The position numbers and the translations under genes were made by a program. DNA of 64,000 bases from Desulfobacterales bacterium (lineage in GTDB: Bacteria; Desulfobacterota; UBA8473), in assembly GCA_016209225.1 (NCBI GenBank), contig JACQWO010000092.1, positions 24,511 through 88,510 of the forward strand. The letters are read 5' to 3'. The notes under the pieces were generated by a model, which was not told where the DNA came from, made no database searches, and saw nothing but the letters and a program-made list of their open reading frames with translations. Below are positions 4,783-31,339 of the stretch, piece after piece (the first letter of the stretch is position 1; each line of letters begins with the position of its first letter).

Positions 4783-4918
4783 GTAACTATTCAGGTAGGC
4801 ACAAAGGCACAGAGCACCAAAGGCACAAATTTTTCTAGCCTATTAGCCTATAGGCTACAGGCTATTAGCCTGTTCTTTGTGCCTATGTGCCTTTGCCACT
4901 TTGTGCCTGAGTAGTTAC
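4783..4918. repeat. MITE-like hairpin element with GTAACTAYTCAGG...CCTGAGTAGTTAC terminal inverted repeats (copy 1)
   Basis: Internal arms are built of AGGCACAAA units. A near-identical copy lies at 27773-27895. The same termini recur at 37727-37908 around a different interior. Confidence 0.6.
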
Positions 4919-7686: not shown

Positions 7687-8028
7687 TCAAAAAGGTTGTC
7701 CCTTTAAAACCATATAGGCATATTCAGGCACATTCACCATTCCCAGATTTTTGAAGTTGCCTTCCTGCCCCGATGAAATCCCAAGTATCCTTATTGATTG
7801 AACCGTTTTTTTTAACTCCCGTACAACACTCGAAAGCAAAAAGGTGCCGAAGGTTGTATATTGGTCGATTTCTTTAAGGTCGATGGTCAGATGCTGACAG
7901 TGGGGAGGAAGGGAGTCGTTCAGGAAAGAATAGATATCGTAAACCGTTTTGTGACTGAGCTCTCCCTGAATCTGAATATAAGACTCTTTGCCTGAGTGTT
8001 TGAACAAAAAATTGACAGGGTTGTCCAT
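7687..8028 (-). CDS. STAS domain protein (second paralog)
   Basis: 113 aa; weak STAS-like pattern, adjacent to the other STAS gene. Confidence 0.45.
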   Translation of the reverse strand: MDNPVNFLFKHSGKESYIQIQGELSHKTVYDIYSFLNDSLPPHCQHLTIDLKEIDQYTTFGTFLLSSVVRELKKTVQSIRILGISSGQEGNFKNLGMVNVPEYAYMVLKGQPF

Positions 8029-8047
8029 CAGTTACCCATTTCTCACG

Positions 8048-8100
8048 AGAGCTTTGAAGAAGTCCCCTGAGAGCGAATTCATAAATTTTCAAAGCTCTCA
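8048..8100. repeat. 53-bp miniature deletion derivative of the GAGAGCTTTGAA-TIR MITE
   Basis: gagagctttgaagaagtcccctgagagcgaattcataaattttcaaagctctc is the two ends of the 199-bp element fused. Confidence 0.55.
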
Positions 8101-11356: not shown

Positions 11357-11374
11357 TTCGAGACCTTTGCATAA

Positions 11375-11573
11375 CCTACCGAGAGCTTTGAAGAAGTATC
11401 CCTGAGAGCGAATTGCATAGATTTTTTGGGAAACCCATCTTAGCAAGCGAAATGTAGAAAATTCACATGTTTGAGCCCGAAGGGTGAGTTTGTGAATTTT
11501 CAATGGAGCGAGCTTAGATGGGTCAAAAAATTCATGCTGAAGCGAAAAGGGGTAATTTTTCAAAGCTCTCAAT
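11375..11573 (-). mobile_element. 199-bp MITE-like element with 12-bp terminal inverted repeats GAGAGCTTTGAA (copy 1, reverse orientation)
   Basis: About 90% identical to copies at 16546-16745 and 31013-31211. The 76-aa track ORF inside it is spurious. Confidence 0.7.
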
Positions 11574-11591
11574 TCAAGGAAGGAGACAAAG

Positions 11592-13196: not shown

Positions 13197-13549
13197 ATTT
13201 GTCCTTTACATATTAATAGAATACCTCTGCCAAGCCCCCGTATTAAGACACAAAATCGATGGTAATAACTATCTTTCTCCTTAGAAAGGTCAAATCCTTC
13301 GACTTCTTCCCTTATCATCTTCAAAAGAACATCCCCGAGGGTTGCCTCACTTCTTATCTCAGGGGCCCTTCCCAGAAGAAGCCTAAAACCTTTTACTCCC
13401 TGGATGCTATCCTTTATTAAGGCATATGCCTGGATATTGAAAAAGGCAGTGGCGATGTCGAATTGTGTATTGGGAATCTCCTCAAGGACACTGTTAAGGA
13501 AAGTGGATAGCTTTATGTCGCTATTATCAATGATTTTCTTTGGTATCAT
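13121..13549 (-). CDS. Hypothetical protein. The N-terminal ~95 aa resemble the first strand-helix unit of a PLD-like nuclease; the C-terminal ~45 aa look like out-of-frame read-through
   Basis: QFDIATAFFNIQAYALIKDSIQGVKGFRLLLG fits the PLD-family N-terminal pattern, but no HxK motif follows. Confidence 0.3.
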   Translation of the reverse strand: MIPKKIIDNSDIKLSTFLNSVLEEIPNTQFDIATAFFNIQAYALIKDSIQGVKGFRLLLGRAPEIRSEATLGDVLLKMIREEVEGFDLSKEKDSYYHRFCVLIRGLGRGILLICKGQIWRNGGFLKWRVYYHRFWGRYRVTL

Positions 13550-13971
13550 TTAATTTTCGTAAGAAAATCCTTCGCAGTTGAAACATTTACGATGCTCTTT
13601 ATCTTGTCAGTAAAGAAATGGGAATCACCAGTCAGAAAATAGTCAGGTTTCGCGTAAAGAACAGCGGCAAGGATCGGGATATCCTTCTTATGAGTTATCA
13701 GGGATGAAGCATCTTTCAATTTATGGTTGTACTTTGAGCGCGGGATGATTGAAATATCAGTCAATGCTTTTTCTGTTTCAGCAAGAGCGATTTCAAATGT
13801 CCTTTCTTTCAGATACTTGAGTTTCTTTTTTACTATCCCCCGTAACTCATCAACGACATCCTCACTAGTCACAAGGTCTATCTCGACCAAATCAAGAATC
13901 CTGGCTTCGTTTCCGTCAAAGAATATCCCTGAGAGCAGAATGTTTGTATCTACAAAGACCTTGTACCTCAT
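13546..13971 (-). CDS. PIN-domain toxin (VapC-like) of a type II TA pair
   Basis: 141 aa; MRYKVFVDTNILL with later acidic residues; 4-nt overlap with the upstream antitoxin gene. Confidence 0.8.
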   Translation of the reverse strand: MRYKVFVDTNILLSGIFFDGNEARILDLVEIDLVTSEDVVDELRGIVKKKLKYLKERTFEIALAETEKALTDISIIPRSKYNHKLKDASSLITHKKDIPILAAVLYAKPDYFLTGDSHFFTDKIKSIVNVSTAKDFLTKIK

Positions 13972-16345: not shown

Positions 16346-16545
16346 AATCAACCTATAGACAAACTAACACCTTTCAACCTATCAGTAAAGTATTTTTTAC
16401 TCTGCCCTTTCAGCTATCCAGCCCTTGAATTTTCAGCGGTTACGTCTTATATTAGATATATTATTGATTGCGTACCTAACTTTCAAAAGAGAGAAAATTC
16501 CATAAATGTTATTGACAACATCCTGCTATTTAAATTATCTATATA

Positions 16546-16745
16546 TAGAGAGCTTTGAAAAATTACCCCTTTTCGCTTCAGCATACATTTTTTGACCCAT
16601 CTAAGCTCGCTTCATTGAAAATTCACAAACTCACCCTTCGGGCTCAAGCATGTGAATTTTCTACATTACGCTCGCTAAGTTGGGTTCCCCAAAAAATCTA
16701 TGAATTCGCTCTCAGAGGTACTTCTTCAAAGCTCTCGGTAGGTTA
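16546..16745 (+). mobile_element. 199-bp GAGAGCTTTGAA-TIR MITE-like element, copy 2
   Basis: Lies directly upstream of the polyferredoxin-hdrA operon. The track ORF 16555-16836 is spurious. Confidence 0.7.
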
Positions 16746-16810
16746 TGATAAAGGTCTCAGAGAGTGCTGGTTTTTTCCCTGTTTAATAGAGCATTACTCC
16801 TGGAGATATT

Positions 16811-20080: not shown

Positions 20081-21736
20081 ATGAATAAAACCGGCATATT
20101 TCTATGTGTATGTCCGTCTATAATTTCAGCTATTGATATAGAAAAGACTGCAAAAAGTATAGAGCTAGCCAATACAGTTGTGTACTCCCATAGGTATCTC
20201 TGTTCACAAAGGGGATTGAGGTTTTTAGATGATTGTGTCGAGAAGGAAAAACTCGGTCGCATATTCATTGTGGCCTGTTCAGAGGATATTCACCGTCATG
20301 TCTTTGAAGGGGCATCTTCATCGAAAGGATATAGCATAGAATACATTGACATAGGAAAGGTTAAGGATGAAAAGGGTCTCATAGATTTAATAAAAGAAAG
20401 GCTGAAAGAGGACAGAGGGAAAACCATCGAGAAAGAGATAATGACCAGGGATGTCCTTGTAGTGGGTGGGGGTGTAGGTGGGGTTCAGGCTGCCCTGGAT
20501 ATCGCTGAAGAGGGTTACAGGGTTTATGTGGTTGAGAGTTCCCTGTCTGTTGGTGGTGTCATGGCTCAGCTCGACAAGACGTTTCCCACCATGGACTGTT
20601 CTATATGTATCCTTGGGCCAAAGCTCGTGGATGCCGGTAAACACCCCATCATCGAGTTAATAACAAATGCCGACATAAAGAGCATAACAGGCAAGGCAGG
20701 GAATTTCAATGTAGAGGTTGAAATAAAACCAAGGTATGTGGATATGGAGAAGTGCAACGGATGTAGCGCCTGTGTCGAGGTCTGTCCTGTGATATTGCCT
20801 AACGAATGGGACCTGAATTTAAAGTCCAGGAAGTGCATTTATGTGATGTTTGCCCAGTCTGTCCCCTTGAGATATACAATAGACAAAGAAAAGTGTATTG
20901 AGTGCGAACTGTGTAAGAAGGTCTGCAAATTGGATGCTATAAACCTCAACGAAGAACCAAAGAGGCGAACCTTAAACGTGGGGGCCATCGTTCTATCTAC
21001 AGGTACCGAGACATTCGATGCCTCCAGGAAAGAACAGTATGGATATGGCAGGGTGAAGAATGTAGTTACCAATATCGAGTTTGAGCGCATAGTGTGTGCA
21101 TCAGGCCCCACCAGTGGGGAACTCATAAGACCGGATGGTAAGCATATAAAGAAGGTTGCTTTTATTCAATGTGTCGGCTCCAGGGATTCACACTTCCACG
21201 AGTACTGTTCCTCTTACTGCTGTATGGCGAGTATAAAAGAGGGCAGACTGGTTATGGAGCACGAGCAGGATGCAGAGGTGTGGATATTCTATAATGACCT
21301 TCGCGCCTTTGGGAAGGGGTTTGAAGAGCTCTATGTACGGTCGGAAAAAGAAGGGATGAAGTTTGTTAAGGGTCTGCCTGGTGAGATAAGAGAGAATCCT
21401 GTAACTGAAAATCCCATTGTAGTATTTGAAGACCCGAAGGACGGGAAGCATAGTGAGGTTGAGTTTGATATGGTGGTCTTGGCAGTGGCGTTAGAACCTT
21501 CGGAACAAAATGCCCGCCTCGCTGAGATGCTCGATCTGGAGACCGACTCCCACGGTTTTTTCAAAGAGTTGGATTCCACTTCAATGCCTCTGGAGACCTC
21601 CAATAGGGGGGTATTTTTAGCCGGTACCTGCCAGGGGCCTAAGGATATACCGGAGACAGTCGCTCAGGCCAGCGGGGCAGCGGCAAAGGTGTGTGGGCTG
21701 TTTTCAGAGATAAACCAGACAGCAAAGAGGTTGTGA
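20081..21736 (+). CDS. hdrA: HdrA-like FAD/Fe-S oxidoreductase (second paralog, no MvhD domain)
   Basis: 551 aa; VVGGGVGGVQAALD, DCSICILGP, ferredoxin motifs; 3-nt gap after the previous gene. Confidence 0.85.
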   Translation: MNKTGIFLCVCPSIISAIDIEKTAKSIELANTVVYSHRYLCSQRGLRFLDDCVEKEKLGRIFIVACSEDIHRHVFEGASSSKGYSIEYIDIGKVKDEKGLIDLIKERLKEDRGKTIEKEIMTRDVLVVGGGVGGVQAALDIAEEGYRVYVVESSLSVGGVMAQLDKTFPTMDCSICILGPKLVDAGKHPIIELITNADIKSITGKAGNFNVEVEIKPRYVDMEKCNGCSACVEVCPVILPNEWDLNLKSRKCIYVMFAQSVPLRYTIDKEKCIECELCKKVCKLDAINLNEEPKRRTLNVGAIVLSTGTETFDASRKEQYGYGRVKNVVTNIEFERIVCASGPTSGELIRPDGKHIKKVAFIQCVGSRDSHFHEYCSSYCCMASIKEGRLVMEHEQDAEVWIFYNDLRAFGKGFEELYVRSEKEGMKFVKGLPGEIRENPVTENPIVVFEDPKDGKHSEVEFDMVVLAVALEPSEQNARLAEMLDLETDSHGFFKELDSTSMPLETSNRGVFLAGTCQGPKDIPETVAQASGAAAKVCGLFSEINQTAKRL

Positions 21737-21783
21737 GGAGATTATTAATTATTTGTAATGATTTCGGTGATATATGTTATATT

Positions 21784-21813
21784 GGGAATTATAAGCTGAA
21801 TAGACGAAATAAA
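21784..21813. repeat. Direct repeat copy 1 (GGGAATTATAAGCTGAATAGACGAAATAAA; extended match from 21771)
   Basis: Repeated at 22791-22820 with one mismatch. The pair brackets the HEPN/MNT cassette. Confidence 0.5.
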
Positions 21814-21826
21814 CACCAACCTATCG

Positions 21827-22135
21827 ATGGAAAGCACAACAATGAAAACTTTTAATGAAATCAAGAAGAGATTGTCCGAACAAAAACCAATTCTCCTAAA
21901 AAAATATAAAGTTAACCGCTTAGGCGTTTTTGGTTCGTATGTTCGAGGAGATCAACATCAAGGCAGTGATCTTGATGTGTTGATAGATTATGAAGATGCT
22001 CCAAGCCTCATTACTTTGATAGAATTGGAATACTACCTGAGTGAAATCGTTGGGGTAAAAGTGGACTTGGTAACTAATAAAGGTATAAAACCTCAACTCA
22101 AGGACTCTATTATCAAAGAGGTGGTTTACGTATGA
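21827..22135 (+). CDS. Nucleotidyltransferase (MNT) antitoxin of a HEPN/MNT pair
   Basis: 102 aa; LGVFGSYVRGDQHQGSDLDVLID is the minimal nucleotidyltransferase GS...DxD motif. Confidence 0.85.
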   Translation: MESTTMKTFNEIKKRLSEQKPILLKKYKVNRLGVFGSYVRGDQHQGSDLDVLIDYEDAPSLITLIELEYYLSEIVGVKVDLVTNKGIKPQLKDSIIKEVVYV

Positions 22136-22494
22136 CTCAGAGGACTGTTTTACATTTTCTTGAAGATATCTTGAAGGCAACCGATGCTATTTACGAGTTT
22201 GTGCTCGATATGAATTATGAGGCTTTCGCAAACGATGAGAAAACAATCCGTGCCGTAGAGAGAGAATTTGAGATTATTGGAGAAGCTGTTAAAAAAATTC
22301 CTGACTCGTTTACTAAAAAATATCCTGATATACCTTGGCGATCGGTTGCAGGGATGAAAGATCGTTTAACTCATCACTACTGGGAAACAGAAGCCGACAT
22401 TCTATGGAAAACGATTAAAGAATCTGTGCCACAATTAAAAGCGATCATCAAAAAAATGATCGAGAATGAGAGCATGGAAAAAAGATCCATGTAA
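22132..22494 (+). CDS. HEPN-domain toxin (HepT/DUF86)
   Basis: 120 aa; RLTHHYW fits the Rx4-6H HEPN motif; 4-nt overlap with the MNT gene. Confidence 0.85.
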   Translation: MTQRTVLHFLEDILKATDAIYEFVLDMNYEAFANDEKTIRAVEREFEIIGEAVKKIPDSFTKKYPDIPWRSVAGMKDRLTHHYWETEADILWKTIKESVPQLKAIIKKMIENESMEKRSM

Positions 22495-22527
22495 CGGGGC
22501 ATGTAACGGGCATGGCCATGTAACGGG
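22488..22527. repeat. Three tandem copies of CATGTAACGGGG starting at the HEPN stop codon
   Basis: catgtaacgggg catgtaacggg catggc catgtaacgggg. Confidence 0.5.
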
Positions 22528-22696
22528 GTCGGGCCACAGCAAGTATCGGATATTGGAACGAATAATTCAGAACTGTCCCCCTGAAATGGGCATATAATGT
22601 TCTTTTCGGGGCTGAAAAAGAGGATATAGTCTCCGAAAACACATATTCCTGGAACTGTAAACCATAAGAATCAACTACATACCTTGGCCCGACCCC
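22525..22696 (+). ncRNA. Candidate structured RNA bounded by a perfect 12-nt inverted repeat (GGGGTCGGGCCA ... TGGCCCGACCCC); possible retron msr/msd (a2/a1-like)
   Basis: The 12-nt inverted repeat flanks about 150 nt, the geometry of the Ec86 a1/a2 pair. It lies upstream of the PRTase gene. Confidence 0.25.
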
Positions 22697-22790
22697 AGGA
22701 ACCACCTTGCAATAAATGTCACAACAGGGATTACTAACAAGGGTTATTCAAGCACTTGAAGAAAACAGAATCCAATATATGATAACAGGT

Positions 22791-22820
22791 GGGAATTATA
22801 AGCTGAATAGACAAAATAAA
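22791..22820. repeat. Direct repeat copy 2 (GGGAATTATAAGCTGAATAGACAAAATAAA)
   Basis: See 21784-21813. Confidence 0.5.
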
Positions 22821-22916
22821 TTGTTATGGCATAGAGATCTAAATTAACCCTTCGGGTTGTGGTGTTATATAGAAACTTTAGAATAACTTGTTAGGGTAAA
22901 AATATAAGGAGGGATC

Positions 22917-24671
22917 ATGGCAAGTACGGTCGAAAAACTTCTTAGAGATAATGGATACTATTTATCTGACGGTCACTATAAGCTAGTTAGTGGGCGACAT
23001 TCGAATGCATATGTTCAGGCAAGAATATCTCTTATGGATCCAAAAATAAATAGTGAATTTCGCACTATATCTACAGAGTTAATTCGTGACCAGAATGTCT
23101 CTGCAGTAGCAGGATTTACAGTAGGAGGCCTACTACTCGCTGATGAAATCGCAAAATATACAAAACTTCCATTGGTAGTCGGGTATAAACCAATGAACGA
23201 TGTAGAATGGCTTGGTGCAGAAAACATTCGAGTTAATTCCAAAGTTCTTTTAGTTGATGATGTTTTAACAACGGCTTCACAGATAAGAACTGCTATACGT
23301 AGTCTTGAAGATATTAGTAATATCAGTGAACTCTTAATATTAGTCGCCGTTGACCGAAGCAATGGAGACTTGAAGATTAAATTTAGGGATGATGAAGTTA
23401 GGATATTGGACTGTATCAAAATTCCTTTATCATCATTTAATCCGAGTGAATGTCCTTCATGCTTTGCTGGGATACCTACAACTGACTTATCTAATCCTGA
23501 AAAAGACGTTGTATCTGTCGTTCTCACGCAACCTCGAGACAAATCTGACTTTATTTTAAAAGGTTATGAAAAAGTATATAAAATGCAACGAGACCAAAAG
23601 TCATTAGATGAAATGAAGGCGTGGAAATTATGGATGCCTGTACTTTTAGCAGGATTACCTATGGCAAGAGCAAAAGAAGATAGTAGTTTGATAAAGTTTG
23701 TAAGCTATTTAACGACTATAGCAGGAGAGCATAATATCAAACCGAGAGTACTCAGTGAGATAATAGGTCAGCTAATAAGGTTATCGTCAATACGAGTTGA
23801 ATCTAGGGCCATTGGCTGTTCTATGATTGTTGGCAATATAGATGAAATCGGTAATATCCTTGAATCAAGGGCGAGAGTTAGAATGCCAATAAATATAAAC
23901 CATGAAAAGCTAACAGAGCTTGTACCACACTTCGATGCACTGTTAGAAACAAATTATGCTATCGTGTTAAGCAATGATGGAAAAGCAATAGACTTCCGAA
24001 GACTCAATTTTAGTAGATCAAGACGCTATATAGAAGGCATAGAGTTAGTACGTTTTGTTACTGCAAATTCTCGGTCCATCGGTTTTGTTCTCAGGCGAGG
24101 AAGGAGTGCTATTGCTGTATATAATAATGGACGACTTGAGGCTATTGGTGAATTATCTGAAAGAAGTGGGCTTTGGGAATTTTCTAGGCCAATGGATAGG
24201 ATAGAAGAAATTCAATCAATATTAAAAAGAAATGTTCAAGAGTTACTTTTAACTTTGGTAGAAGCGTCAAGAGAACTAGTTGCTAGAGGGCATGGTGCAC
24301 TATTTGTGGTTGGTAACGTAGACTCTTTAAACCATACAGTGCCCAAAATTGAAATTGAACCTCAGAATATTAAAGACATGACAATAGAAGATTTAGTTGA
24401 ATTAGCAAAACTTGACGGTGCAGTATTGATAACTGAAGACGGCAGATTACTTCAAGCCACTGTCATATTGAAGAATCGAGATGAAGGGACCTTTGCAGGT
24501 CAACAAGCTGGTACTACGCATGGTGGCAGTCGGAAAGAAACGGCAATAAGAACAAGCATAGAATGCCCAAATTGCGCGGTGATTAATATTTCTCAAAATG
24601 GTGCTATTGAAATATATGTTCACGGAGAGTCATGGCCAATTTCTGAATCATTTTCAGGATTGTCACGATGA
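22917..24671 (+). CDS. Phosphoribosyltransferase-domain protein fused to two degenerate diadenylate-cyclase (DAC/DisA_N)-like domains; putative retron/defence effector
   Basis: 584 aa; PRTase PRPP loop NSKVLLVDDVLTTASQI. The C-terminus ELVARGHGALFVVGN...LDGAVLITEDGRLLQATVIL...GTTHGGSRKETAIRTSIECPNCAVINISQNGAIEIYVHGE aligns with CdaA but lacks RHR. An earlier degenerate copy is present. Candidate -35/-10 at 22857-22884 and a strong RBS. Confidence 0.7.
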   Translation: MASTVEKLLRDNGYYLSDGHYKLVSGRHSNAYVQARISLMDPKINSEFRTISTELIRDQNVSAVAGFTVGGLLLADEIAKYTKLPLVVGYKPMNDVEWLGAENIRVNSKVLLVDDVLTTASQIRTAIRSLEDISNISELLILVAVDRSNGDLKIKFRDDEVRILDCIKIPLSSFNPSECPSCFAGIPTTDLSNPEKDVVSVVLTQPRDKSDFILKGYEKVYKMQRDQKSLDEMKAWKLWMPVLLAGLPMARAKEDSSLIKFVSYLTTIAGEHNIKPRVLSEIIGQLIRLSSIRVESRAIGCSMIVGNIDEIGNILESRARVRMPININHEKLTELVPHFDALLETNYAIVLSNDGKAIDFRRLNFSRSRRYIEGIELVRFVTANSRSIGFVLRRGRSAIAVYNNGRLEAIGELSERSGLWEFSRPMDRIEEIQSILKRNVQELLLTLVEASRELVARGHGALFVVGNVDSLNHTVPKIEIEPQNIKDMTIEDLVELAKLDGAVLITEDGRLLQATVILKNRDEGTFAGQQAGTTHGGSRKETAIRTSIECPNCAVINISQNGAIEIYVHGESWPISESFSGLSR

Positions 24672-24691
24672 TAAAAACCCTAACCCATAAG

Positions 24692-24762
24692 GTTTGATCT
24701 GACCGGGCGACGTGAATAGAGTATAAAAAGCTGAGCTTTCGCTCCCGGTCAGAATCAAACCA
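24692..24762 (+). ncRNA. Long hairpin (17-bp stem GGTTTGATCTGACCGGG / CCCGGTCAGAATCAAACC, 36-nt loop) in the 269-bp gap upstream of the NDT-like and RT genes; second msd-like candidate
   Basis: Imperfect only by one bulged A. It is followed by a 10-bp inverted repeat ATGCGTAACC / GGTTACGCAT at 24789-24798 / 24868-24877, and has no T-run after it. Confidence 0.3.
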
Positions 24763-24940
24763 TTGTTCAACAACAGCATGCACATGAATGCGTAACCGCA
24801 AGGTGCTTTTTGGCTTTTGATTATTTTACTTTTGCAAAGCATCTTTGAGCATGTTTACAAGATACAGGTTACGCATCAGTGATGCTCGCGTTAGACATAT
24901 AAATAATTAAAGATCATGGCTGGTGTAACATCAAGAAATT

Positions 24941-25507
24941 ATGAGTGATATCAAAGAATCAATAACAAGATTTGGCAATGATTTAGAGGATATTTTCTCA
25001 GAACGTAGAGCTGTTGTTTTTCTCTGCGGCCCGTCTTCCAAAGACCTAGATCATCCTGGTGCACAATTACGCGTCGACCTTGAGGAAGCATTAAAGCAAG
25101 AAGGCTTCGAGGTGATTCTAGGAGAGGATGATGGGCTTGAAAGCCTCAGGCATAAATATAGTAACTATGCACATGAAAATGAATTGATGTTTATTCAAAA
25201 ACACTGCAATGCAGTGATCCTTATCGCTTCTAGTGTTGGTGCCTACTGTGAATTGGGTTTATTTTCTTACAAAAAAGTTCATGACTTAGAAAGCATGACG
25301 GATTTTATTTTAATAATTAGCAATGAATATGAAAATGTACAATCTTTTTTAATCGAGGGACCAGCTGCTGCTATCGATGATTTTGGGAAAGTTTTTTACG
25401 GAGACTTATCTAATTTTGATTATAGCAATATTATTAAAAGGTTGAGGCGGAGGCGCTCTGTTTATTTTACAAGTCACAAAGGTCGTCCACCTTCATTTAA
25501 TGAATAA
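24941..25507 (+). CDS. Nucleoside 2-deoxyribosyltransferase-like (NDT-like) protein, the effector class of type II retrons
   Basis: 188 aa; AVVFLCGP (compare IYLAGP) and AVILIASSVGAYCELGLF (compare DSGTAFELGYA); 2-nt gap to the RT gene. Confidence 0.65.
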   Translation: MSDIKESITRFGNDLEDIFSERRAVVFLCGPSSKDLDHPGAQLRVDLEEALKQEGFEVILGEDDGLESLRHKYSNYAHENELMFIQKHCNAVILIASSVGAYCELGLFSYKKVHDLESMTDFILIISNEYENVQSFLIEGPAAAIDDFGKVFYGDLSNFDYSNIIKRLRRRRSVYFTSHKGRPPSFNE

Positions 25508-25509
25508 CG

Positions 25510-26991
25510 ATGCGAGTAACATTAAACGAAAATATACTACTCTGGGCGGCAGCAGTTTTACAACCAGCTTCTGCGGCTGATGTTAGAAGTTTTATTGCAT
25601 CAATTTATCCAGAAATTTCACTACTCCCCAATATTGGAGAAATCGAAAATATTTTTTCAACTTGGCGAGAAGAAGGGTATTTACAGAGAGTTCATGGTAA
25701 ATCAAGATTGTATTCAGCAACTTACAAAACAAATTTAAAGCTATCAGTAAAGCTAAGACGAAGCAGGGACAAGTCCCGTCTTTTCTTGCTTAAATCTACA
25801 AGAGCTGCTAATGTGAATGTATCGGGGGTACGAGAACAGGATTCGGTTGGCGATTCGCCATCCACGGAAGGTAGCATAATTTTACAAGAGGGTGCGTGGC
25901 CAATAAAACCGGCCGCTGCTCCTCGGGTTCCTCGGACCACCGGCCGATTTTATTGGCCACGGATCTCAAAGCAACTAAGTATTGAAGTTGGCCCTAGTTT
26001 TTCGTCCCCCGATACATTTTTTAACTATTATTCATTCCCTTCTATCAAAACCATTCATGAGGCTAGTCATAAGCCTGCTTCAGAAAAAGATCTAAGTATA
26101 ACAGATATCTCTTTAGCCATTGGAATAAGTCCGCGGCTCATTACATCCTTTATTCATGCCCCTGAAAACCATTATAGGCAATTTAAAATTGGTAAACGAG
26201 GTGGTGGAGAGCGTGTTATAAATTCGCCTAGAACATTTTTAAAGGTGGTTCAATACTGGATATTAGATTATCTGCTTCATTCTTTGCCTTGTCATCCGAA
26301 CTGTCATTCCTACCAAAAAGGAAAGTCTATTTTGTCTAATTCTCTTCCTCATGTTGGGCAAAAATATTTAGCAAACATTGATATTTCTAATTATTTCCCA
26401 TCAATTAATGAAAAAATGGTTTTCTCTCTTTTAAGAGACAATAATTTTGGAGAACAGTTATCAAAAGCCGTCGCCCGTATTGTCACACTTGAGAATGGTT
26501 TGCCCCAGGGCGCACCAACTAGCCCAATTATTTCCAATGCGTTTCTATGTAATTTTGATGAAATTATGACTCAGCGAGCTTTGTCTTTTAATCTTGTATA
26601 TACAAGATATGCAGATGACATGACTATAAGCGGGGAAAATAAAGAGAATATAATTAGTTTGATAAAAAATTTGTCTGCTAATCTCAAGGATATGGGCCTC
26701 TCCATTAATGAGAAAAAAACAAGGATCGCGAGTCAAGGAGGACAGCAAAAAGTGACAGGCATAGTTGTAAACGAAGTTTCGCAACCACCTCGTACTTATA
26801 GAAGGAACATTAGATCAATGTTTCACCATGCAGAGAGAAACCCAGAATTATTTGCAGACAATATTAAAGTTCTGAAAGGATATATAAGTTATTTGCAAAG
26901 TTTTCCGAATATGCAAGGGAAAAAAGAAATATTCAGATATAAAAATGTTTGTAAAACAATTGAAAAGAATTTTGTCCAACAATCGCATTAG
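25510..26991 (+). CDS. Retron-type reverse transcriptase with an N-terminal extension of about 190 aa
   Basis: 493 aa; FKIGKRGGGERVINSP, LPQGAPTSP, YTRYADDMTISG (YADD), and the retron-specific QKVTGIVVN (VTG). Confidence 0.85.
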   Translation: MRVTLNENILLWAAAVLQPASAADVRSFIASIYPEISLLPNIGEIENIFSTWREEGYLQRVHGKSRLYSATYKTNLKLSVKLRRSRDKSRLFLLKSTRAANVNVSGVREQDSVGDSPSTEGSIILQEGAWPIKPAAAPRVPRTTGRFYWPRISKQLSIEVGPSFSSPDTFFNYYSFPSIKTIHEASHKPASEKDLSITDISLAIGISPRLITSFIHAPENHYRQFKIGKRGGGERVINSPRTFLKVVQYWILDYLLHSLPCHPNCHSYQKGKSILSNSLPHVGQKYLANIDISNYFPSINEKMVFSLLRDNNFGEQLSKAVARIVTLENGLPQGAPTSPIISNAFLCNFDEIMTQRALSFNLVYTRYADDMTISGENKENIISLIKNLSANLKDMGLSINEKKTRIASQGGQQKVTGIVVNEVSQPPRTYRRNIRSMFHHAERNPELFADNIKVLKGYISYLQSFPNMQGKKEIFRYKNVCKTIEKNFVQQSH

Positions 26992-27036
26992 CTCATATAA
27001 ATAAGCATAAGCAATTATTGAAAGGAGGAATATATT

Positions 27037-27240
27037 ATGGATAAGGCTCTTTTAGAAAAAGCATTAGAAATGTCACCGAATGAAAGGGTAGTACTTGCTG
27101 AGTTAATCCTAGCTAGCATCGATCATGAAGAAGATGAAATTCGCGAATTATGGCTTTCTGAAATAAAAGACCGTATAAAAGCAGTCAATGAAGGTAAAGC
27201 AAAATTATTAGATTTTGAAAGGCTATACAATGAAAGTTAG
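27037..27240 (+). CDS. Putative addiction-module antitoxin component (orphan, no toxin gene adjacent)
   Basis: 67 aa; MSPNERVVLAELILASID...LSEIKDRI fits the small alpha-helical antitoxin family usually paired with RelE/ParE-like toxins. Confidence 0.55.
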   Translation: MDKALLEKALEMSPNERVVLAELILASIDHEEDEIRELWLSEIKDRIKAVNEGKAKLLDFERLYNES

Positions 27241-27308
27241 TATTGGATAGTGTTTAAATACTCGGTTCACATTTATGTTTTTTGGACATCCTCAAATAAG
27301 GTAATTCT

Positions 27309-27770
27309 ATGGCAAAGCTATCCATGTACCAACTGTACCATTATCTCCCGAAAACCGATTGTGAGAAGTGCGGCTTTTCATGTATGGGATTCGCTAATCG
27401 CCTTATTTCCAGAGATGTTAGACCGGAGGATTGCCCTTTTCTATTGGAACCGGAGTACTCAGAGTCCCTGACTGAACTGAACAGGCTTCTGGGCCCTGAG
27501 GTTGAGAAAGAGATCACAGGGCTTATAATAGACCAGGAAAAGTGCAATGGATGCGGTATATGTGTTACTGTATGTGAGGTAAATATGGAAAAGAGTCAAG
27601 AGGTAGGAGCGGGGAGAGGTCCTGGCTTTTCAGATGAGGTTGTGTTACGAATAGATAATGGGAAGATTAAGCTGGTTGACCCCCAATCTTGCAGACGGGC
27701 AAACCCCTCTTCCCATATCTGCAGGGCATGTGCGGAACTATGCCCCACAAAAGCTATTAGCCTTGTGTGA
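27309..27770 (+). CDS. Small Fe-S protein: N-terminal CFeSP/CdhE-like 4Fe-4S motif plus ferredoxin-like cluster motifs
   Basis: 153 aa; LPKTDCEKCGFSCMGFANRL...CPF resembles the corrinoid Fe-S protein large-subunit N-terminus; then CNGCGICVTVC and CRACAELCP. Confidence 0.6.
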   Translation: MAKLSMYQLYHYLPKTDCEKCGFSCMGFANRLISRDVRPEDCPFLLEPEYSESLTELNRLLGPEVEKEITGLIIDQEKCNGCGICVTVCEVNMEKSQEVGAGRGPGFSDEVVLRIDNGKIKLVDPQSCRRANPSSHICRACAELCPTKAISLV

Positions 27771-27772
27771 TT

Positions 27773-27895
27773 GTAACTATTCAGGTAGGCACAAAGGCAC
27801 AGAGCACCAAAGGCACAAAGTTAAGAAAAAACAACGAAACGACCCTGCTCTGCTTTGTGCCTATGTGCCTTTGCCACTTTGTGCCTGAGTAGTAC
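27773..27895. repeat. GTAACTAYTCAGG-TIR MITE-like hairpin element, copy 2, inserted between the Fe-S gene stop and fwdB
   Basis: Near-identical arms to 4783-4918; right end cctgagtag-tac has a 1-nt deletion. Confidence 0.6.
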
Positions 27896-27915
27896 TAAAT
27901 AGACGGAGGTAAAAT

Positions 27916-29202
27916 TTGTCGGAAATACTGTATGAATCTGTAGTATGCCCCTCCTGTGGCTGTCTGTGTGATGACATAGATGTAGTCGTTGAGGAGAATC
28001 GGGTAAAGAGCATAAGAAATGTATGCGAATGGGGCATAAGCAAGTTTCTTTTTACCAAGAAGTTCACTCCAAATGTAAAAAGGGGACGGGTAGAAAAGCC
28101 GATGATAAGGGAAAAAACTCTGGTAGAGACCGACTATGAGGCAGCTATCTCCAGGGCAGTGGATATCTTAAAGGGTTCAAAAAAACCCTTGATTTATGGA
28201 CTGACAAACTCAGGGTATAACGCCCAAAAAATCGCACTAAGTATTGCAAGAAGGTTAAAGGGATTGTTTGAACCAAGGGGGGCAGCCCTCTTGAGCTCAT
28301 ATTATGCCGCAATGGGTGATTCAAATTTCTACGTAGCACCTCTGGAGGAGATAAGGAACAATGCCGACCTTATAATATATTGGGGATGCAACCCTATACA
28401 TTCTACCCCAAGACACCTGGCCCGATATTCTGTATATCCAAGGGGGAGATGCAAGGAGAGGGGAAGCCAGGACAGGGTGGTTTTTACTGTGGATGTTGCC
28501 GAAAATGAGATGGGAAAGCTGTCCCGCCGGTTTCTTCAAGTGGAACGGGGCACTGATTTTCTGGTAATGGAAACTATGATGAAATTGCTGAGGGAGGAAA
28601 ACGCTGAAGACTATAAAGGGGATATCGCTACTATAGAAAATATGGTCAGGCAGATGACAAAGGTGTCCTATGGTGCGATATTCTTCGGCATGGGATTGTC
28701 AGCTAAGGATAATGCTGCGAAAAACATTGAGAATCTGATGGCGCTGGTTAAGGAGTTAAACAGGAAAACCAGGTTTGTGATTCTTCCTCTTTATGATGAT
28801 TTCAATACAAGCGGGGTGATACAGCTTCTTATCAGGGAGTTGAAAAGCCCAATGCCGGCGGATTTTTCCGGTGATCACGTCGCCAAAAACAGTAAATACT
28901 CCTTGTTGGAAAACCTCCATGAGATAGACGCTGCATTAGTCGTTGGAGATGACCCATTTTGGTCTCTTCCCTCTGAAAAGTCCGATTTGTTGAAAAAAAT
29001 ACCTATGGTTCTCATCGATCCTTACTGGACAAGGACAACCAACAAGGCCCAGGTGGTTTTCCCAACAGCCGTTACGGGTATAGAAGCAGAGGGGATTGCT
29101 TACAGGATGGATGGTCTGCCCCTCAAATTGAAAAAGGTCCTGGAGAGCGAATACCCATCGGACGAGAGTATATTGGGAGACATATATCAGCGTTTGCAAT
29201 AA
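27916..29202 (+). CDS. fwdB: Formylmethanofuran dehydrogenase subunit B-like (FwdB/FmdB family)
   Basis: 428 aa; N-terminal VVCPSCGCLCDDIDVVVEENRV...CEWGISKF matches the FwdB Fe-S motif; length fits. Confidence 0.75.
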   Translation: MSEILYESVVCPSCGCLCDDIDVVVEENRVKSIRNVCEWGISKFLFTKKFTPNVKRGRVEKPMIREKTLVETDYEAAISRAVDILKGSKKPLIYGLTNSGYNAQKIALSIARRLKGLFEPRGAALLSSYYAAMGDSNFYVAPLEEIRNNADLIIYWGCNPIHSTPRHLARYSVYPRGRCKERGSQDRVVFTVDVAENEMGKLSRRFLQVERGTDFLVMETMMKLLREENAEDYKGDIATIENMVRQMTKVSYGAIFFGMGLSAKDNAAKNIENLMALVKELNRKTRFVILPLYDDFNTSGVIQLLIRELKSPMPADFSGDHVAKNSKYSLLENLHEIDAALVVGDDPFWSLPSEKSDLLKKIPMVLIDPYWTRTTNKAQVVFPTAVTGIEAEGIAYRMDGLPLKLKKVLESEYPSDESILGDIYQRLQ

Positions 29203-30613: not shown

Positions 30614-31012
30614 GCATTCAAATTCAAAGTCTTTTTCCAAACCCTGTCAACTGGATTCTATGAACTGTTACGATTTTTCTTGAAATTTATTTGTATATAG
30701 AGTAAAAGTATACAATAGTGTGCTCATCCTCATACTCTAATTGAACCCGAGATTACCTATACTGTACCCAATATCTATAATCTTGCCATGAGAGTGACCT
30801 AGTAATAGTTTTAGGTTCAGATTCACTATTGTATCCCAATTAGGATGCCGAAGATTCCAGATACCTTCCGCAATTTCTATTCTTACATGAGCACGGCAAG
30901 AGAGTAGAACGATCAAAACCACTTTATAACTTCAATAAAGTAGAATTCCCGAGATATTTTTAATTATTCGACGCTTGAGACTAAAGTTTGTCTACTTTAC
31001 TTCTTAACAAAA

Positions 31013-31211
31013 TTGAGAGCTTTGAAAAAGTACCCCTTTTCGCTTCAGCATACATTTTTTGACCCATCTAAGCTCGCTTCATTGAAAATTCACAAACTCA
31101 CCCTTCGGGCTCAAATATGTGAATTTTCTACATTCCGCTCTCTAAGAAGGGTTCCCCAAAAAATCTATACAATTCGCTCTCAGGGAGCTTCTTCAAAGCT
31201 CTCGGTAGGTT
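31013..31211 (+). mobile_element. 199-bp GAGAGCTTTGAA-TIR MITE-like element, copy 3, about 130 bp upstream of cdhA
   Basis: The track ORF 31013-31276 is spurious. Confidence 0.7.
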
Positions 31212-31339
31212 GTGCAAATATCTCAAAAGGGGGTGAATGGAACCGGGAAACTCACAATTTAGTACAGGGTGGATAAAGATTGGCGCTTAGATTTAATATT
31301 TTTATGTTGGCAAATATTTTTAAATAGGAGGGAGAAGAT

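Follow-up and report, generated by a model that had tools for sequence, protein, structure and literature searches.

A variable site between hdrA and an Fe-S protein gene

The DNA analysed here (the window) comprises 64,000 nt of a 91-kb contig (JACQWO010000092.1) from a metagenome-assembled genome (MAG) of a Desulfobacterales bacterium. It contains two copies of a 31-nt direct repeat, one ahead of a putative toxin–antitoxin (TA) pair of MNT and HEPN genes and the other ahead of a gene that fuses a phosphoribosyltransferase (PRTase) to a DAC domain. Both copies lie in a block of variable cargo bounded by two hdrA-like genes and a gene for an Fe-S protein. An earlier note on this DNA had read the two copies as the duplicated attachment site of an inserted TA cassette or, alternatively, as a duplicated promoter or operator. 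We compared the block with four syntenic relatives (L098–L101; 73–92% identity), which came from an HdrA scan of the genome collection, and with two unrelated metagenome contigs that carry the same TA pair, one from groundwater (ENA; L013) and one from JGI (L018). The block as a whole and the features of its left part are as follows.

Ends at 21736: two hdrA-like genes, at the left edge of the hotspot
21749–27297, no strand: variable low-GC cargo of the hdrA/Fe-S-gene hotspot; synteny with L098–L101 stops at 21748 and resumes at 27296–27298
21749–21782, forward strand: 34-nt AT-rich segment that separates copy 1 from the last syntenic base (21748), with GTTATAT at 21776–21782 and no detectable homology to the 5′ end of the relatives' 71-aa gene
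21783–21813, forward strand: repeat copy 1, chimeric; its left part resembles copy 2 and, from AATAAA (21808) rightward, it matches the MNT–HEPN unit of L013 and L018
21808–22486, forward strand: core unit of the MNT–HEPN (type VII-like) TA pair, 99.1–99.5% identical to L018 1581–2259 and L013 133–515
21827 or 21842 to 22135, forward strand: MNT, 102 aa, NTP_transf_2 (PF01909, 3e-19)
22132–22494, forward strand: HEPN/HepT-like, 120 aa (PF01934, 5e-28)
22487–22528, forward strand: three tandem copies of CCATGTAACGGGG, the first of which holds the HEPN stop codon
22525–22696, forward strand: inverted-repeat block, structured and closed by a perfect 12-bp stem, GGGGTCGGGCCA/TGGCCCGACCCC
22710–22790, forward strand: remnant of ancestral genes, namely the extreme 3′ end of a 71-aa gene followed by codons 1–25 of gene X
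22790–22820, forward strand: repeat copy 2; its first base marks the end of homology to gene X as present in L099 and L101
22821–22896, forward strand: spacer between copy 2 and the PRTase–DAC gene, with TGTTATGG, TGTTATAT, a small hairpin AACCCTTCGGGTT, and GAATAACTTG|TTAGGG
Starts at 27309: Fe-S protein gene, right border of the hotspot

In all four relatives the match to the window runs to 21748, which is 12 nt beyond the hdrA stop codon, and resumes at 27296–27298, the ribosome-binding site of the Fe-S gene; the GC content of the DNA between these points is 36–38%, versus 45–48% in the flanks. In L100 only about 100 nt separate hdrA from the Fe-S gene. L101 has a 71-aa gene overlapping a gene for a 188-aa nucleotidyltransferase-like protein (gene X), and L099 has both of these together with an 85-aa open reading frame (ORF) that ends in two tandem copies of ACATGAGGAACAGGGTCGGACCAC and a ParE-type pair. 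In L098, 42 nt are left of the 71-aa gene, with other small TA-like genes behind them. Because the relatives differ in content between the same two core genes, the site is, as judged from synteny, a hotspot for TA and defence cargo. The MNT–HEPN pair is absent from it in all four.

The comparison shows a small TA-like pair, the 71-aa gene with gene X, as the ancestral content of the hotspot, and it shows two segments that have replaced parts of this pair in the window. Segment A (21749–22709), consisting of the 34-nt segment, copy 1, the TA core and the tandem and inverted-repeat block, takes the place of the body of the 71-aa gene. Segment B (22790–27297), consisting of copy 2, about 70 nt, the PRTase–DAC gene, a retron and an antitoxin-like gene, takes the place of gene X after codon 25 and of all that followed as far as the Fe-S gene. 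Between them lies the remnant at 22710–22790, which is 96% identical to L099 and 94% identical to L101; the homology ends in ACAGGT, and copy 2 begins with the T of this hexamer. Within 1.1 kb there are thus no fewer than five homology breakpoints (21748, 21808, 22486, 22709 and 22790), with the repeat at the left edge of segment B and 34 nt from the left edge of segment A.

Extent and distribution of the repeat

The repeat reads TGGGAATTATAAGCTGAATAGAC[G/A]AAATAAA. Its two copies are identical at 30 of 31 positions and spaced 1007 bp apart, and dinucleotide-preserving shuffles of the window yielded no match to the 31-mer at up to three mismatches, so the direct repeat described in the earlier note is real. 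The length of 30–45 bp proposed there, which included an ATATATGxTA lead, holds only at its lower end. The lead is present at both copies, with a 2-nt offset between them, and is only marginally unexpected (shared 7-mer, p ~0.02 in composition-matched shuffles). Since copy 2 starts where homology to gene X stops, its lead 'ATATATGATAACAGG' is host coding sequence conserved in ancestral gene X; together with the offset, this sets the true repeat at 31 nt, not 45. From the end of copy 1 it is 14 nt to the first ATG of MNT (21827) and 29 nt to the second (21842); from the end of copy 2 it is 97 nt to the ATG of the PRTase–DAC gene (22917). Between the copies lie MNT, HEPN, the three tandem CCATGTAACGGGG units and the inverted repeat, all as previously described, and in addition the 81 nt of host-gene remnant.

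Neither strand of the window yielded a third copy, even with 16- and 21-nt sub-patterns at three mismatches; within these 64 kb, the search for further copies suggested in the earlier note returned only the two. The 22-nt core of the repeat had no exact match in one-genome-per-species GTDB contigs, JGI metagenomes or IMG/VR, and a 141-nt blastn query covering copy 2 and the spacer (22776–22916) had none among plasmids and phages. A related genome with an empty site and one repeat copy was likewise sought: L098–L101 share the flanks, and none has the repeat or any significant match to it in its variable region. Neither copy forms a secondary structure on either strand (folding z of +0.2 to +1.2), a promoter scan placed no sigma-70 hexamer pair inside either copy, and the interior of the repeat has neither dyad symmetry nor a stable hairpin. 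A 43-aa ORF running over copy 2 is, by synteny, the truncated 5′ end of gene X; a protein search with it gave no homologs, and local phmmer returned the window's own copies only.

A TA unit with ends of its own

The MNT and HEPN genes overlap by 4 nt, as in HepT/MntA type VII systems, in which a minimal nucleotidyltransferase gene (here 102 aa) overlaps a HepT-like HEPN gene (here 120 aa). Unlike those systems, the pair scores below the NCBIfam equivalog cut-offs for MntA and HepT (45.5 and 30.2 bits versus 60), and it is a putative TA pair in that sense. Its DNA is 99.5% identical in L013 and 99.1% identical in L018, and the identity breaks off abruptly at both ends of the unit. In both contigs the unit starts at G|TTATCTTTTATAATAAACACC, behind two different imperfect-palindrome sites, and the hairpins on its borders look attC-like by eye and by folding. 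In L018 the homology to the window ends at 22486, 8 nt short of the HEPN stop codon, and a strong hairpin (z = −4.5) takes over there. An exact-protein look-up with MNT returned L013 only, with a different upstream context. As the earlier note had supposed, then, the TA pair is mobile: judged by near-identical DNA in two other contexts and by its absence from this site in the four relatives, it is demonstrably a mobile unit with ends of its own. L018 carries two TA pairs in tandem between housekeeping genes, and by analogy these units look like integron-type cassettes in a CALIN (a cluster of attC sites without an integrase), their sites being attC-like.

The unit in the window has lost both canonical ends. 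It starts 11 nt inside the G|TTATC boundary of L013 and L018; the canonical 5′ end G|TTATCTTTTAT is missing, and the first 11 nt and the whole 3′ hairpin are gone. The TATAAT box that the cassette has in L013 and L018 is lost at the copy 1 junction. When copy 1, copy 2, L013 and L018 are aligned, copy 1 follows copy 2 up to ...AAATAAA and the cassette from AATAAACACC onward. Because the switch falls within AATAAA, copy 1 is, on this alignment, a hybrid joined within a 6-bp AATAAA microhomology.

The CCATGTAACGGGG block occupies the place of the attC-like hairpin that follows HEPN in L018. The inverted-repeat block beyond it is closed by arms at 22525–22536 and 22685–22696 and folds with a minimum free energy of −58 kcal/mol (z = −3.4); it contains an R″-like ATGTAAC and has no GTT core after its right arm. 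As a related tandem element, GGGTCGGACCAC ×2, occurs in the same hotspot of L099, the block is probably lineage-resident sequence and not part of the TA cassette. Rfam models run over 21000–28000 gave two chance-level matches only and none for this block. The (C)CATGTAACGGGG/ACATGAGGAACAGGGTCGGACCAC units form a lineage-specific tandem element found at 22487–22696 of the window and at 7752–7815 of L099. They are in the same hotspot in both genomes, at different positions relative to gene X, and in both the ORF before them ends inside them; the window copy adds the 172-nt hairpin-closed structure.

Origin of the two copies

We favour, with moderate confidence, a reading of the repeat as a junction-associated leader, the shared left edge of two blocks acquired in a variable hotspot, that arose by illegitimate recombination. 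On the alignment, an integron-type MNT–HEPN cassette was fused to the leader through AATAAA, 11 bp inside the cassette boundary, with loss of its attC-like 3′ hairpin as well. The two copies would stem from microhomology-mediated recombination, for which two routes are conceivable: unequal recombination between two hotspot alleles, each with the leader before different cargo, or copying of the leader from a template as the TA block was being added. They would not have been made by a recombinase duplicating its attachment site. Transcription would proceed from differing −10-like boxes just upstream, and the TA operon and the PRTase–DAC gene would both begin with the same leader of roughly 25–30 nt. 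The direct repeat would also make the TA segment deletable by repeat-mediated recombination.

This reading places the locus beside the microhomology and illegitimate junctions of other TA and defence hotspots, with which it shares breakpoints within about 1 kb, microhomologies of 1–6 bp (T, AATAAA), truncated resident genes, a short duplicated patch, and varied cargo between the same core genes. The locus is a mosaic TA/defence hotspot assembled from modules of the cassette type.

Several points weigh against it. The left edge of homology between copies 1 and 2 coincides with the breakpoint between host and foreign DNA at copy 2, and maybe at copy 1. Simple templated-insertion models do not predict that a duplicated patch starts exactly at such a breakpoint; a random templated duplication is not expected to do so, and a defined DNA end or recombination point fits better. 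Given the unplaced 34 nt to the left of copy 1 and 70 nt to the right of copy 2, either copy may be the original. None of the genomes searched has the repeat just once, in one or the other of its two settings, and the succession of events is therefore inferred. The 30/31 identity may reflect a very recent event or selection. Last, the continuity from hdrA to the PRTase–DAC gene is given by the MAG contig and two Logan contigs, L011 (18440–22099) and L001 (22032–23901), both 100% identical to the window, and the 68 nt by which they overlap lie inside the TA unit, which is known in other genomic contexts.

Other Logan contigs also break near the TA core: L012 ends at 21779 and L002 starts at 22216. 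L012 (SRR12113404) stops at ...ATATATGTTA, directly behind a GTTA core and 4 nt short of copy 1, and other contigs of the same study read through this position; its end may represent a strain variant with different cargo after the G|TTA point, or a gap in coverage. Exact-protein look-ups with hdrA, HEPN, PRTase–DAC and the Fe-S protein returned only contigs with the arrangement of the window.

Alternative explanations

A functional leader or operator that co-controls the TA operon and the PRTase–DAC gene is compatible with the junction-associated origin that we prefer, and a role as a shared transcribed leader is possible; as an account of the repeat in its own right we think it unlikely. An extended −10-like sequence, TGTTATATT, at 21775–21783 ends on the first base of copy 1, and TTGAAG-16-TATGAT at 22756–22783 (TATGAT at 22778–22783) ends 7 nt before copy 2, so that both copies lie directly downstream of −10-like boxes and both transcripts would start in or at the repeat. 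It is exactly at the copy 1 junction that the TATAAT box of L013 and L018 has gone from the TA cassette, and the two copies agree at 30 of 31 positions while all their flanks differ. The boxes, however, are both outside the repeat, differ in sequence and stand at offsets of 0 versus 7 nt, which argues against the duplicated promoter or operator of the earlier note, as does the lack of a hexamer pair within the repeat. The box ahead of copy 2 belongs, with the lead 'ATATATGATAACAGG', to the remnant at 22710–22790, that is, to pre-existing gene X coding sequence. The repeat also has no dyad or stable hairpin, it precedes no other gene of the island or the window, relatives of the PRTase–DAC gene and of the TA pair are without it, and there is no locus-specific candidate for a DNA-binding regulator.

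We are similarly doubtful of descent from integron-type sites, in which the locus would be a decayed, CALIN-like cassette array and the 31-mer would lie in a junction region, either attI-like or derived from attC, and be present twice because the junctions of one array resemble each other. Integron cassettes typically carry TA and defence genes, and the modules of the window are small and self-contained (TA, PRTase–DAC, retron) with no integrase nearby, as in cassette arrays and CALINs. In other contigs these modules are bounded by imperfect palindromes and G|TT cores, as seen for the TA unit in L013 and L018. G|TTRRRY core boundaries are kept in the window for the PRTase–DAC module (G|TTAGGG, 22890) and the retron (G|TTAGAC, 24888; G|TTGAAC in the retron-carrying contig L120), while the TA unit starts 11 nt inside its G|TTATC. 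Relatives of the PRTase–DAC gene stand behind an attC-like site, at which 14 contigs break, and their homology to the window starts at GTTAGG (22890). TGTTA boxes cluster near both repeat copies (21775, 22821, 22861 and 22888). The formation of CALINs by integration at secondary sites is on record (Cury et al. 2016, PMC4889954).

Unlike integron sites, the 31-mer does not fold, and in neither cassette does it sit at the canonical G|TT boundary. The TA unit is without its two canonical ends, the block after HEPN has no GTT core beyond its right arm, and the island contains no intI gene. The array lies within a conserved hdrA/Fe-S operon and not beside an attI site, and its sites are attC-like only. 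A home-made heuristic attC scan, combining R″/R′ boxes with duplex energy, showed no enrichment that would set the island apart from the rest of the window. The repeat itself was ruled out as an attC hairpin by folding (z of +0.2 to +1.2).

One pairing around copy 2 deserves description in its own right. The sequence CTAACAAGGGTTATTC (22734–22749, in the gene X remnant) is complementary to GAATAACTTGTTAG (22881–22894), perfectly so except for a 2-nt bulge, and the latter adjoins the G|TTAGGG boundary of the PRTase–DAC module. The layout is attC-like (R″/L″ ... L′/R′) and encloses copy 2. No such match of the 14-nt arm occurred in 20 Mb of simulated sequence; the complementarity itself is highly non-random, and it counts in favour of an integron-type origin. 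An attC site spanning 22730–22895 with copy 2 inside was nevertheless rejected, because its fold is not significant (z = −0.5) and its left arm is gene X coding sequence that is conserved in L099.

Insertion of the Campbell type, in which a circular TA element carrying the 31-mer recombined upstream of the PRTase–DAC gene and left attL and attR behind, strikes us as decidedly improbable. Two near-identical direct repeats of att-like length, 1007 bp apart, do bracket a mobile TA unit, and the Logan contig that ends at 21779 hints at variation within the population near the left junction. The bracketed DNA, however, ends in 81 nt of host genes that are syntenic with L099 and L101, and it is therefore not a clean insert. 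The conserved ends of the TA unit (21808 and 22486) differ from the repeat, so that the bracket does not match the mobile unit; the precursor implied by the model, hdrA–repeat–PRTase, was not seen, and the empty or alternative sites of L098–L101 have no copy. At its right end, the second block carries no further copy. Nor is there an integrase or other recombinase among the six annotated genes of 21749–27297, which by Pfam, PADLOC and NCBIfam are MNT, HEPN, PRTase–DAC, NDT, RT and an antitoxin only. Of four marks of an attachment-site duplication, one is present, the direct repeats; a copy at an empty site, wholly foreign DNA between the copies and a recombinase were not found. What stands of the earlier note's inserted cassette is the mobility of the TA unit, and what falls is the repeat as its attachment site.

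The fit of a defined DNA end also raises a reading for which we see only a slender chance: the first base of the repeat would be a recognition point or DNA end in a 'leader-first' mechanism of cargo loading, with blocks starting TGGGAATTATAAGC... That such loading would proceed by one-ended joining, with no inverted partner or local recombinase, to AT-rich, ATATAT(G/T)-proximal targets in resident genes is a speculation to which we give just as little credence. Its signature would be two independent host/foreign junctions at the same foreign nucleotide.

An assembly artefact, in which two strain variants with one 31-mer each were joined through a shared TA core, is the least credible of the readings: the core does occur in several contexts, Logan contigs break in or beside it and the independent support for the join is the 68-nt overlap, but the MAG contig and the contigs of three sequencing runs are 100% consistent with the window and offer no alternative path, and even a false join would leave the 31-mer at the head of two different cargo blocks.

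For the junction-associated leader that we prefer, the wider point is that direct repeats flanking a TA cassette need not mean that an attachment site was duplicated; here, synteny with the four relatives places the repeat at the head of two distinct blocks of cargo. The locus is a compact case in which cassette-type modules lie between two core metabolic genes and not in a canonical integron. Should the repeat be a signal for recombination or regulation, it would indicate one route by which such hotspots are loaded or co-regulated; as it stands, it is mainly a caution and a well-delimited example.

The PRTase–DAC and retron modules

The cargo downstream of copy 2 consists of the following features.

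22917–24671, forward strand: PRTase–DAC (DisA_N) fusion gene, 584 aa, a separate module
24672–24894, forward strand: structured spacer with AACCCTAACC, a hairpin at 24691–24761 and an inverted repeat ATGCGTAACC/GGTTACGCAT at 24788–24876
24895–26990, forward strand: type II-A2 retron module, 92% identical in nucleotide sequence to L120 over exactly 24895–26990
24941–25507, forward strand: NDT/STM3845-like gene, 188 aa (PADLOC NDT_II-A, 2e-50)
25510–26991, forward strand: reverse transcriptase (RT) with an N-terminal extension, 493 aa (PADLOC RT_II-A, 9e-181, residues 1–486)
27037–27240, forward strand: antitoxin-like gene (Unstab_antitox/TIGR02574), 67 aa, the last gene of the variable block, with no partner toxin

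The PRTase–DAC protein belongs to a small family, with 22 homologs at E ≤ 1e-5 that range from 42% to 100% identity. Its PRTase domain resembles orotate PRTases. In the DAC domain, inspected by eye, the 'DGA' motif is kept (LDGAV) and the 'RHR' motif reads RKE (GGSRKETA); given this replacement of the canonical RHR, the protein may not be a normal c-di-AMP cyclase, as far as motifs can indicate, and it could represent an uncharacterised defence or stress cassette. The homologs L003–L008 and L009 lie behind an attC-like site and L010 is without a GTTAGG core; the 14 contigs that break at the attC-like site carry the homolog P0002. The next-closest relatives (79–81% identity) have no retron, two of three stand behind an attC-like site, and their downstream partners vary. 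AACCCTAACC is conserved after the stop codon in all relatives of the gene. By eye and by folding, attC-like hairpins are present at 24788–24876 of the window and in L003, L013 and L018.

The retron module begins at GCG|TTAGAC (core at 24888), and the match to L120 starts right behind this core. The RT scores 255 bits against NCBIfam retron_St85_RT (cut-off 235). In type II-A2 retrons the DNA-binding domain is split off and fused to the N terminus of the RT, next to an NDT-like effector (Mestre et al. 2020, PMC7736814). The NDT and RT genes of the window have this split architecture, with the DNA-binding domain on the RT N terminus, and on that basis the pair is, by domain assignment, a type II-A2 retron. 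Its relatives (RT 73–89% identical) consist of NDT and RT only. The PRTase–DAC gene and the retron are separable modules with boundaries of their own at GTT cores, so the label 'retron-like effector', which the earlier note gave to the PRTase gene, belongs instead to the NDT–RT pair.

No Rfam model matched an msr–msd over 21000–28000. The module shared with L120 leaves just 46 nt of non-coding DNA, for which reason a palindrome within the RT ORF, in its N-terminal extension, could be part of the msr–msd. This palindrome (25895–25961) has 28-bp arms that are 89% complementary and an 11-nt loop, and it is kept as a palindrome in L120, L014 and L015. The inverted-repeat block at 22525–22696, with its 12-bp closing stem followed by AGC, was considered as an msr–msd and rejected: it lies outside the module shared with L120, the RT is of type II-A2 with NDT directly upstream, and relatives of the RT have neither the PRTase–DAC gene nor the block.

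Among well-sampled relatives of the retron, the closest (RT 82% identical) has a different MNT and HEPN pair (PF01909 and PF05168; L014 3162–3677) after it, not ahead of it, and adjoins an island with a type I restriction–modification system and a DndD-like gene. TA pairs of the MNT/HEPN class thus recur beside this retron family, as different genes. The antitoxin-like gene at 27037–27240 is probably the remnant of another TA cassette.

Other repeats in the window

The window also holds a dispersed family of repeats of about 160–220 nt, 94–96% identical, at 11357–11574 (reverse strand), 16545–16747 and 31011–31227 (both forward), with a partial copy at 8046–8079. Two direct copies bracket a 14.5-kb hdr/Fe-S/fwd-like cluster that contains the hotspot, and L101 has a copy inside its own cluster (13505–13671). 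A composite repeat of about 120 nt, made up of two pieces, occurs at 4783–4915 and at 27773–27893, with 96–98% identity between these two sites; its ends pair as a strong hairpin at 4783–4915, and at 27773–27893 it starts 3 nt beyond the stop codon of the Fe-S gene on the border of the hotspot.

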